A stretch of 30,664 nt of DNA from a virus. Taxonomy: Duplodnaviria > Heunggongvirae > Uroviricota > Caudoviricetes. The stretch spans positions 1 through 30,664 of IMG/VR virus record IMGVR_UViG_2802429251_000007, one strand, 5' to 3'. Numbering within the stretch: position 1 is the first letter of the stretch; each line of letters opens with the position of its first letter. The position numbers and the translations under genes are program-made. The notes below the pieces were generated by a model. It was given only the letters and a program-made list of their open reading frames with translations. It made no database searches and was not told the DNA's origin. Of this stretch, positions 3,496-5,086 are shown piece by piece.

Positions 3496-3729
3496 ATATC
3501 GTTTGCACAGTCACATTCGCGATTTATGGCGGGCTGTGTGGGGGAGCCGAAAGGCTCGCCGGTTTCCGTACCCGGTTACGCCAACCCTGCACAGTTCGCC
3601 ACCAGTTCGATTGGCGTCGTCGGTGGCGATAATTTCCAAATGTACGGAGTTATCGTTATGACCACTCAAATCTCGGTGATGCTGCCAACTTACTGATTTA
3701 GTGTATGATGGTGTTTTTGAGGTGCTCCA

Positions 3730-4005
3730 GTGGCTTCTGTTTCTATCAGCTGTCCCTCCTGTTCAGCTACTGACGGGGTGGTGCGTAACGGCAAAAGCAC
3801 CGCCGGACATCAGCGCTATCTCTGCTCTCACTGCCGTAAAACATGGCAACTGCAGTTCACTTACACCGCTTCTCAACCCGGTACGCACCAGAAAATCATT
3901 GATATGGCCATGAATGGCGTTGGATGCCGGGCAACTGCCCGCATTATGGGCGTTGGCCTCAACACGATTTTACGTCACTTAAAAAACTCAGGCCGCAGTC
4001 GGTAA
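3730..4005 (+). CDS. insA: IS1 InsA protein
   Basis: The translation [43 protein letters not shown]... is the canonical InsA sequence. Confidence 0.95.
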
Positions 4006-4427
4006 CCTCGCGCATACAGCCGGGCAGTGACGTCATCGTCTGCGCGGAAATGGACGAACAGTGGGGCTATGTCGGGGCTAAATCGCGCCAGCGCTGGCTG
4101 TTTTACGCGTATGACAGTCTCCGGAAGACGGTTGTTGCGCACGTATTCGGTGAACGCACTATGGCGACGCTGGGGCGTCTTATGAGCCTGCTGTCACCCT
4201 TTGACGTGGTGATATGGATGACGGATGGCTGGCCGCTGTATGAATCCCGCCTGAAGGGAAAGCTGCACGTAATCAGCAAACGATATACGCAGCGAATTGA
4301 GCGGCATAACCTGAATCTGAGGCAGCACCTGGCACGGCTGGGACGGAAGTCGCTGTCGTTCTCAAAATCGGTGGAGCTGCATGACAAAGTCATCGGGCAT
4401 TATCTGAACATAAAACACTATCAATAA
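3730..4427 (+). CDS. insAB: IS1 transposase InsAB' (made by -1 frameshift at AAAAAAC 3981-3987)
   Basis: The insB' frame (ORF 3924..4427) is open and canonical, and the frameshift motif is intact. The fusion is established IS1 biology. Confidence 0.85.
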
Positions 4428-5086
4428 GTTGGAGTCATTACCCAAATCTCTGTTGAAACTCTCTCCCCGATCACCCATAACCAGATTCCTGTTATTACCA
4501 CCGAACTTTTGGCGCAGCTTTACGGCACTGAGTCGGTGCGTATTCGCCAGAATCATCATGAGAACAAAGTACGCTTCGTTGAAGGGAAACACTTTTTCAA
4601 AGTTGTTGGTAATGACCTTAAAGAATTGCGGGTCGCTTTAAACTACTCACAAAATCCAGTTTCACCCAAAGCCCGCTCCCTCATCCTCTGGACAGAACGA
4701 GGCGCAGCACGCCACGCCAAAATGCTCGAAACCGATCAGGCGTGGGATGTGTTCGAAAAACTGGAAGACTGCTATTTCAGTCAAAAGGATCCGTCAACGC
4801 CAGTTTCATGCCAGAAAAGTTACGACACGCGAGTTCTCTGTTATCAGAGAGGCGGTGTCACTGTTTCCACAATTCAGTTACGGGATGATGATATTGTTAT
4901 TTCCCTTGAGTCATGGCTGGAACTGGCGAGAGCCAATGGTTGGTTTGTTGTTCGCAGAGATAAACTGGTGGAAAGGTTGATGCAGCTTTAAAAAAGTTCT
5001 TGCATTTTTGCACATAAACTGCTTCAATTCCGGTACGCTTCGCAAAGCTGTATCGCGAGGCGAACCAAGCGCATGAACTTTACCAG

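Follow-up and report, generated by a model that had tools for sequence, protein, structure and literature searches.

The sequence considered here is that of a tailed-phage prophage (Caudoviricetes; IMG/VR record IMGVR_UViG_2802429251_000007), analysed as one stretch of 30,664 nucleotides (nt) that we call the window; all positions refer to it. Between a Q-like late antiterminator gene and the tRNA, lysis and morphogenesis genes, a complete copy of the insertion sequence (IS) IS1 interrupts an antirepressor gene that appears, from the RNA elements preceding it, to be the protein output of an IsrK/C4 RNA switch. The locus reads as follows, with protein lengths in amino acids (aa).

2831–3385, + strand: Q-like late antiterminator gene, 184 aa, DUF1133/AntQ type (Pfam DUF1133, 1.7e-106; PHROG 753 'anti-termination protein Q-like', 8.5e-80)
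3382–3411, + strand: promoter-like site TTGACT-18-TATATT, the PisrK equivalent and best sigma-70 match in 2800–6400 (10/12 positions)
3405–3457, + strand: c4-a1b1 C4-target motifs in the 5′ half of isrK (Rfam, 52.2 bits; gathering score 46.7)
3418–3494, + strand: isrK small RNA (sRNA), a short leader transcript (Rfam, 75.6 bits; gathering score 50)
3522–3606, + strand: C4-type antisense RNA element (Rfam C4, 77.6 bits; gathering score 45; full-length model match)
3611–3649, + strand: downstream C4 target repeats, b2-like TTGGCGT (3611–3617) and a2-like TACGGAG (3643–3649), seen as direct and inverted repeats
3658–3674, + strand: 5′ stump of the antirepressor gene (ATG, 5 codons and 2 nt), which reads into IS1 and meets a stop at 3694–3696
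3667–3674, no strand: left copy of the target-site duplication, CAAATCTC, present as a single copy in IS-free alleles
3675–4442, + strand: complete IS1 of the IS1A type, 768 bp (100% identity to annotated IS1A-family elements; Pfam InsA and DDE_Tnp_IS1; terminal repeats)
4443–4450, no strand: right copy of the target-site duplication, CAAATCTC, by reading of the sequence
4451–4991, + strand: 3′ remainder of the antirepressor gene (third base of codon 6 to the stop), with no start codon before TTG 4509

The IS1 insertion and the gene it splits

The element starts GGTGATGCTGCC and ends GGAGTCATTACC, and its ends align as imperfect inverted repeats (GGTGATG... and ...CATTACC; left repeat about 3675–3697, right repeat about 4420–4442). 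It carries insA (3730–4005; Pfam Zn_ribbon_InsA, 1.3e-21, and HTH_Tnp_IS1, 4.7e-31) and, in the −1 frame, insB′ (3924–4427; DDE_Tnp_IS1, 5.9e-78), with the A6C slippery or frameshift motif AAAAAAC at 3981–3987; the transposase genes are co-directional with late transcription. Over all 768 bp it is 100% identical to IS1A-family copies in many Escherichia coli genomes. The target duplication is exactly 8 bp long, within the 8 or 9 bp that is normal for IS1 (PMC12428005), and the bases flanking the two copies of CAAATCTC differ. Chance by itself would give an 8-bp repeat in about 1 of 65,000 cases; the repeat, a perfect known IS and the existence of empty-site alleles together exclude chance.

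IS1 lies 17 nt past the antirepressor ATG and 25 nt past the C4 target, and codon 6 is split between its second and third bases. When 3658–3674 is joined to 4451–4991 in silico, an uninterrupted open reading frame (ORF) of 558 nt results. Its 185-aa product matches Pfam ORF6N (1.4e-20, 73.8 bits), aligns along residues 1–185 with positions 1–187 of the PHROG 2379 'anti-repressor' profile (3e-94), and is 67% identical over residues 1–185 to a Salmonella homologue that also lies behind isrK-C4. The family name, and experiments on AnrP of the Salmonella prophage Gifsy-1, suggest that it would inactivate a repressor. In the window, translation from ATG 3658 now terminates inside IS1 after 12 codons. 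Two ways of rescuing the protein were considered and rejected: a fusion to insB′, which shares the frame but ends at TAA 4425–4427, and a downstream start at TTG 4509, which has no Shine–Dalgarno sequence and would cost 14 residues of the ORF6N domain. Because the coding sequence is cut, insB′ stops and TTG 4509 has no ribosome-binding site, the IS1-bearing allele is predicted to be null or near-null. A look-up of the 160-aa truncated ORF gave no match.

We used the reconstructed empty-site sequence as a query and searched 5,426 complete E. coli genomes for the IS1 junction by BLAST. In 123 complete E. coli genomes the empty-site query aligns over the junction without a break, most closely in strain PEC148 (99.6% identity), where RefSeq annotates a 185-aa 'ORF6N domain-containing protein'. 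A longer reconstructed query (DUF1367, YbcO, the Q-like gene and ORF6N) reached at least 80% coverage in 128 genomes; among the best 60 of these 128 matches the antirepressor gene is intact, with no transposase beneath the match, in all 60. Window positions 3375–3674 are identical to PEC148 and positions 4440–5115 are 99.4% identical to its allele. The IS1 junction is present in 0 of the 5,426 genomes, and a search of species-representative genomes for the exact junction also returned 0; the sole match to the junction was a Logan contig (run SRR3993806) with 100% identity to window positions 1712–5383. Judged by these alleles, the split gene is an insertion and not the ancestral state, and since the duplication is perfect, the IS1 undiverged and the allele rare, the insertion seems to be recent.

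A preliminary description of this DNA had read the locus as a complete 768-bp IS1 at 3675–4442 with an 8-bp duplication, inserted, by its looks recently, six codons into a 185-aa ORF6N/antirepressor-like gene, and had proposed a comparison with IS-free alleles. The coordinates, domains and IS1A identity bear out the element; the 185-aa ORF6N and PHROG 2379 matches bear out the split gene and its restoration by excision; the exact duplication, the 100% IS1A identity and the perfect in silico restoration agree with a recent event; and the comparison yields an uninterrupted gene in 123–128 complete E. coli genomes.

The RNA switch upstream of the split gene

All three Rfam elements fit within the 270 bp that separate the Q-like gene from the antirepressor ATG. 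The promoter-like site overlaps the Q stop codon and is conserved in relatives, and isrK ends in a terminator, the analogue of tR′, made of a stem at 3473–3490 and a U run (−12.5 kcal/mol, z −3.5). Direct repeats (D1 and D4) reveal that the downstream targets copy motifs of isrK, and inverted repeats (I5 and I6) pair these targets with the loops of C4: TTGGCGT at 3611–3617 and GTACGGA(G) at 3642–3649 are complementary to two C4 loops, a pairing that is predicted. The a2-like TACGGAG contains a GGAG Shine–Dalgarno sequence 8 nt before ATG 3658. The same isrK/C4 layout recurs in E. coli PEC148, Shigella flexneri, another Escherichia and Salmonella, and the Q-like gene region has 81% DNA identity to a Salmonella locus with isrK and C4; the Q-like protein also gives a marginal Phage_antitermQ match (26.9 bits against a cut-off of 26). 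On this evidence the split gene would be the protein output of an IsrK/C4 switch, a point that goes beyond the preliminary description.

An ATG at 3526, within the C4 element and at the position of orf45 of Gifsy-1, is conserved and in frame with ATG 3658, with no intervening stop. In IS-free alleles, translation starting there would extend the protein at its N terminus to 229 aa; a second frame, which lacks an ATG start, closes with an ATGA overlap at 3658–3661. Such modules can occur more than once in a prophage. A single prophage of Salmonella enterica strain s1 has two of them (isrK plus C4; positions 476–662 and 3774–3954 of the locus), separated by 3.3 kb, one upstream of a hok/sok region and one behind a Q-like gene. 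In the Shiga-toxin phage Stx2_EH0505 (LC616031; locus 1488–3860), of the Stx2a group, an isrK/C4-type leader precedes a 121-aa truncated antirepressor and ant-like ORFs of 224 and 242 aa. About 600 bp of extra DNA at the antirepressor locus of Stx2a phages, considered as another IS, is actually such a truncated antirepressor with further ant-like ORFs. The antirepressor slot behind Q appears from these Stx2a arrangements to be a hot spot of recombination and duplication.

The function of such a locus has been studied in Gifsy-1 (Hershko-Shalev et al. 2016, PMC4825925). There, PisrK drives anrP through partial read-through of the isrK terminator, and the long transcript is not translated before IsrK has acted in trans. 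AnrP then raises expression of the antQ operon and induces the phage, and deletion of PisrK abolishes phage release. Expression of AntQ is toxic, and its toxicity is relieved by extra Rho, indicating that AntQ opposes Rho-dependent termination (all PMC4825925).

Induction and late transcription

We propose, with a probability of roughly 0.7, that a recent IS1A insertion into an RNA-gated antirepressor gene has cost the prophage the protein output of the switch and has left the late operon largely expressible. An active-type IS1A copy would have transposed recently into the 5′ end of the gene. In the uninterrupted locus, a constitutive promoter behind the Q-like gene would make the short IsrK RNA, and a fraction of transcripts would read through the isrK terminator into the C4-type element, whose loops would pair with the antirepressor ribosome-binding site and keep the gene silent; the decoy copies of the C4 target sites in IsrK could release this block. 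Promoter, IsrK, C4 and target sites are all untouched by IS1, with the coding sequence destroyed. The RNA-triggered, SOS-independent induction of the Gifsy-1 type, and its positive feedback (from AnrP to the antQ operon to phage), would by this analogy be lost to the prophage. RNA polymerase loaded with Q, and resistant to terminators, most likely crosses IS1, so that lysis and virion genes would be expressible once Q is made, perhaps at a somewhat reduced level, and the IS1 transposase genes would now be co-transcribed from a phage promoter.

Because the split gene is the regulated output of IsrK and C4, we regard loss of the antirepressor as a more probable biological consequence than polarity. 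A related prophage, that of strain CE0021a, encodes a 139-aa repressor with an HTH_3 domain alone and no peptidase S24 domain (locus 2263–2682), in an early region that is Rac-like (recE, kilR, ydaT). Repressors that consist of a helix-turn-helix (HTH) domain and lack a self-cleavage domain usually depend on antirepressors for induction, which suggests antirepressor-dependent induction in the related phage group.

Several points weigh against this proposal. The induction role is drawn from Gifsy-1 and from the repressor of relatives, may not hold for a mosaic phage, and concerns an immunity region that lies outside the window. Assignment of the isrK promoter as the Q-dependent late promoter is likewise by position and analogy. 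The precedents for read-through, described below, are lambda Q and an IS629 crossed with a different Q, and neither is a case of IS1 being crossed by a Q of the DUF1133 type. When the antirepressor is untranslated, ribosomes would be absent from about 1.9 kb between the insA end and the holin start, and this stretch includes C-rich, G-poor sections at 4400–4520 and 4640–4720 that could load Rho, making partial polarity plausible.

The alternative that survives best, although unlikely, is that the insertion is a neutral hitch-hiker: the antirepressor would be redundant, the prophage would be induced by another route, late expression would be unaffected and there would be no phenotype. A lambdoid prophage can often be induced in more than one way, related Stx2a phages show duplicated or truncated Ant-like genes, and the allele is very rare, as expected of a young neutral or mildly deleterious mutation. 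However, the elaborate and conserved RNA control upstream argues that expression of the antirepressor matters, the Gifsy-1 locus affects phage production, and the related prophages have an HTH-only repressor of the type that usually needs antirepressors.

The question of polarity depends on what lies downstream of the insertion.

5084–5109, + strand: intrinsic terminator after the antirepressor gene (10-bp stem and T run; −15.9 kcal/mol, z −4.6)
5355–5508, + strand: tRNA-Thr(UGU) and tRNA-Gly(UCC) in the late leader (ARAGORN; Rfam tRNA, 67.7 and 65.6 bits)
5779–5798 and 5819–5836, + strand: two strong intrinsic terminators upstream of the holins (−12.4 and −14.5 kcal/mol; z −4.5 and −4.75)
5918–7006, + strand: lysis cassette of two holin-family genes and an M15-peptidase endolysin (Pfam Phage_holin_8, Phage_holin_3_7 and Peptidase_M15_4; PHROG holin and endolysin)
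7755–26716, + strand: morphogenetic operon with small and large terminase, portal, head, sheath, tube, tape measure and baseplate genes, all full length

Late genes occupy the + strand from 5918 to about 28370, and pphA (29729–30388) marks the chromosomal flank. The proteins of the CE0021a prophage, from the small terminase to the DUF2612 baseplate protein, all align full length and unbroken to the window (spike 69.7% identical, the others 89–100%). The ORFs of the lysis cassette are open, and the module differs from that of the CE0021a prophage. The preliminary description had placed IS1 about 180 bp past the promoter and terminator, upstream of the tRNA, lysis and morphogenesis genes of an otherwise intact-looking prophage; both statements agree with the coordinates (promoter 3382–3411, terminator stem 3473–3490) and with the full-length terminase-to-baseplate genes.

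Some further features of this region and of the ends of the prophage are recorded here. The lysis module has been swapped: in relatives that are otherwise near-identical, a lambda-type holin and a GH24 lysozyme take its place. The tRNAs follow an extremely AT-rich stretch (the 5120–5508 region) with a promoter-like TTGCGA-16-TATCAT (5264–5291), and the closest IS-free relatives, in PEC148 and CE0021a, have no annotated tRNA genes at the late-leader site. Between the lysis genes and the small terminase gene lies a minus-strand ORF of 70 aa (7330–7542), a possible moron with no counterpart in CE0021a. Upstream of the DUF1367/YbcO/Q block there is a toxin–antitoxin locus of the hok/sok type (Rfam sok, 1166–1340, 108.6 bits; hokD-like ORF, about 1335–1487). 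At the right, a match to the Rfam sRNA family IS009 (189 bits, 28135–28333) falls inside a putative tail-fibre assembly ORF (27792–28370), and a minus-strand ORF of 190 aa at the right end of the prophage (28414–28986) may be cargo; considered as a tail-fibre invertase, it gave in Pfam a weak hexapeptide-repeat (acetyltransferase-like) match alone.

The position of the isrK promoter suggests that it is a late promoter of the PR′ type and that IsrK is the analogue of the lambda 6S leader. In scans of 2800–10000, promoter-like sites were no commoner than chance, and an alternative late promoter downstream of IS1 was rejected accordingly; between the tRNAs and the terminase genes no promoter better than chance was found except a weak 9/12 match. 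The earlier claim that all late expression must traverse IS1 is thus reasonable, no other convincing promoter being evident, although the late-promoter role of the isrK promoter is deduced from position. With three or more strong intrinsic terminators standing between IS1 and the holins, late expression would need processive antitermination in any case. A terminator scan found no terminator-like site on the + strand within IS1, and polarity of IS1 in this orientation would be of the Rho type alone, which Q-type factors suppress. Suppression of polarity has been documented for lambda Q (Forbes & Herskowitz 1982, as cited in PMC12360218). In E. coli O157:H7 Sakai, an IS upstream of the lysis region does not keep the Stx2 prophage Sp5 from being dominantly induced and yielding abundant particles (PMC2669165), and Sp5 transfers to K-12 (PMC4587872). 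Sp5, an Stx2a prophage, resembles the window in carrying an IS in the Q-dependent late unit, upstream of the lysis and morphogenesis genes. It differs in that the element is IS629 (IS3 family), the Q is a different one and the insertion disrupts no gene (Asadulghani et al.), whereas that in the window destroys a regulatory gene.

Somewhat less probable than a neutral insertion, in our estimate, is strong polarity, in which IS1 would terminate most late transcription even with Q loaded and the prophage would be effectively cryptic, producing neither lysis nor particles. IS1 insertions are classically strongly polar. This one lengthens the untranslated stretch, the C-rich, G-poor segments lie within that stretch, and no alternative promoter is evident downstream. 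Against this, late transcription already passes the three or more strong terminators, the + strand of IS1 has no intrinsic terminator, lambda Q suppresses polarity and AntQ-type proteins counter Rho, and Sp5 is fully productive with an IS in an equivalent position. Substantial read-through of IS1 is therefore likely, with strong polarity as the minority outcome. Whether a Q-modified polymerase reads through had earlier been put as an open question; the suppression of polarity by lambda Q, the Sp5 precedent and the native leader terminators go far towards answering it.

Less probable again is that loss of the gene was selected. According to this explanation, the IsrK/Ant/AntQ cascade burdens or kills the host, IS disruptions of the antirepressor gene are favoured and recurrent, and the sRNAs are kept. 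A second disruption of the same gene is indeed known: in S. flexneri SFBU1023, and identically in E. coli ECMA0423, an IS600 follows codon 17 (SFBU1023 locus, 4052 onward), about 35 bp from the IS1 site, which is empty there. SFBU1023 shares with the window the leader, the first 17 codons and an IS near the 5′ end of the gene, but its downstream prophage is gone, whereas that of the window is intact. The same locus has a second, diverged IS1 upstream (1442–2209), 90.6% identical to the window copy. The independent IS600 hit, and the toxicity of AntQ and its triggering by AnrP in Gifsy-1, speak for selection. Yet there are two events only, one of them (IS600) in an IS-saturated genome in which the rest of the prophage has decayed; the gene is intact in 60 of the 60 best E. 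coli matches, which indicates no general pressure to lose it; and IS-rich lineages should take such hits by chance. Two IS hits within 35 bp are more economically put down to chance. A wider version, to which we give as little credence, holds that recurrent IS knock-out disarms a self-induction and toxicity circuit, with the RNAs and a Q-readable operon kept, and that induction mobilises and packages IS1. If it were true, disarming the IsrK/Ant/AntQ circuit would benefit the host and packaged IS1 would spread horizontally. Last, a misplacement of IS1 at this locus by a repeat-collapsing assembler is very improbable: IS1 is a multicopy element and assemblies classically go wrong at repeats, but the 8-bp duplication matches at both junctions and is single-copy in empty sites, and the SRR3993806 contig, from a run that may share the window's source genome, spans IS1 and both flanks at 100% identity.

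Under the proposed loss of antirepressor output with a largely expressible late operon, transcription may also act on the element itself. Upstream co-directional transcription raises insAB′ transcription and IS1 transposition (PMC12428005), whereas an older study, as cited in that paper, found that read-through repressed cointegration. Prophage induction could, speculatively, alter IS1 activity, and if the phage is productive its virions would, equally speculatively, carry IS1. On its own this is a routine IS1 allele; its value is that of a natural mutant that separates an intact RNA switch from a destroyed protein output, and that sets a classic polar element inside a late operon run by a DUF1133/AntQ-type Q, the processivity of which is less well characterised than that of lambda Q. 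A comparison of the restored and IS1-bearing alleles would bear both on the antirepressor's share in spontaneous induction and on the suppression of IS polarity by AntQ-type proteins. For annotation, the lesson is to interpret an 'ORF6N gene behind Q' jointly with its controlling RNA genes, isrK and C4.

Comparison with known systems

In length, reading frames, A6C motif, terminal repeats and 8-bp duplication, the element is like IS1A and IS1E of E. coli K-12 (the IS1 'consensus' element); the insertion site alone differs, a site absent from the 5,426 complete E. coli genomes. The order of features around it recalls lambda Q, PR′, 6S RNA and tR′, with a Q-like gene followed by a promoter, a short terminated leader RNA and a long late operon on the same strand. 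In the window, the leader RNA would also act as a regulatory sRNA, the stretch from the promoter to the lysis genes holds an RNA-controlled antirepressor gene and tRNAs, and the Q protein is of the DUF1133 family, for which no Q-binding element is defined.

With the immI region of P1 and P7 (c4-icd-ant), the window shares an RNA of the C4 family, a1/b1 motifs upstream and a2/b2-type motifs downstream, one of which lies over the antirepressor ribosome-binding site. It differs in that the module stands behind a lambdoid Q gene instead of within an immunity region of P1, that a discrete icd-like ORF was not found, and that the antirepressor matches ORF6N alone in Pfam.

The Salmonella Gifsy-1 isrK-orf45-anrP region has the same components in the same order: a DUF1133 Q-like gene, isrK with its terminator, an RNA like C4 and STnc1160, an antirepressor gene and lysis genes. 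Unlike Gifsy-1, the window has no isrJ homologue after the antirepressor gene (4900–6000, even at E ≤ 1). The frame of ATG 3526 runs into the antirepressor gene with no stop, that gene is broken by IS1, and two tRNA genes precede the lysis genes. Set beside these systems, the locus combines a known IS with a prophage regulatory module of a known kind; the insertion is ordinary, and its interest lies in where it sits.

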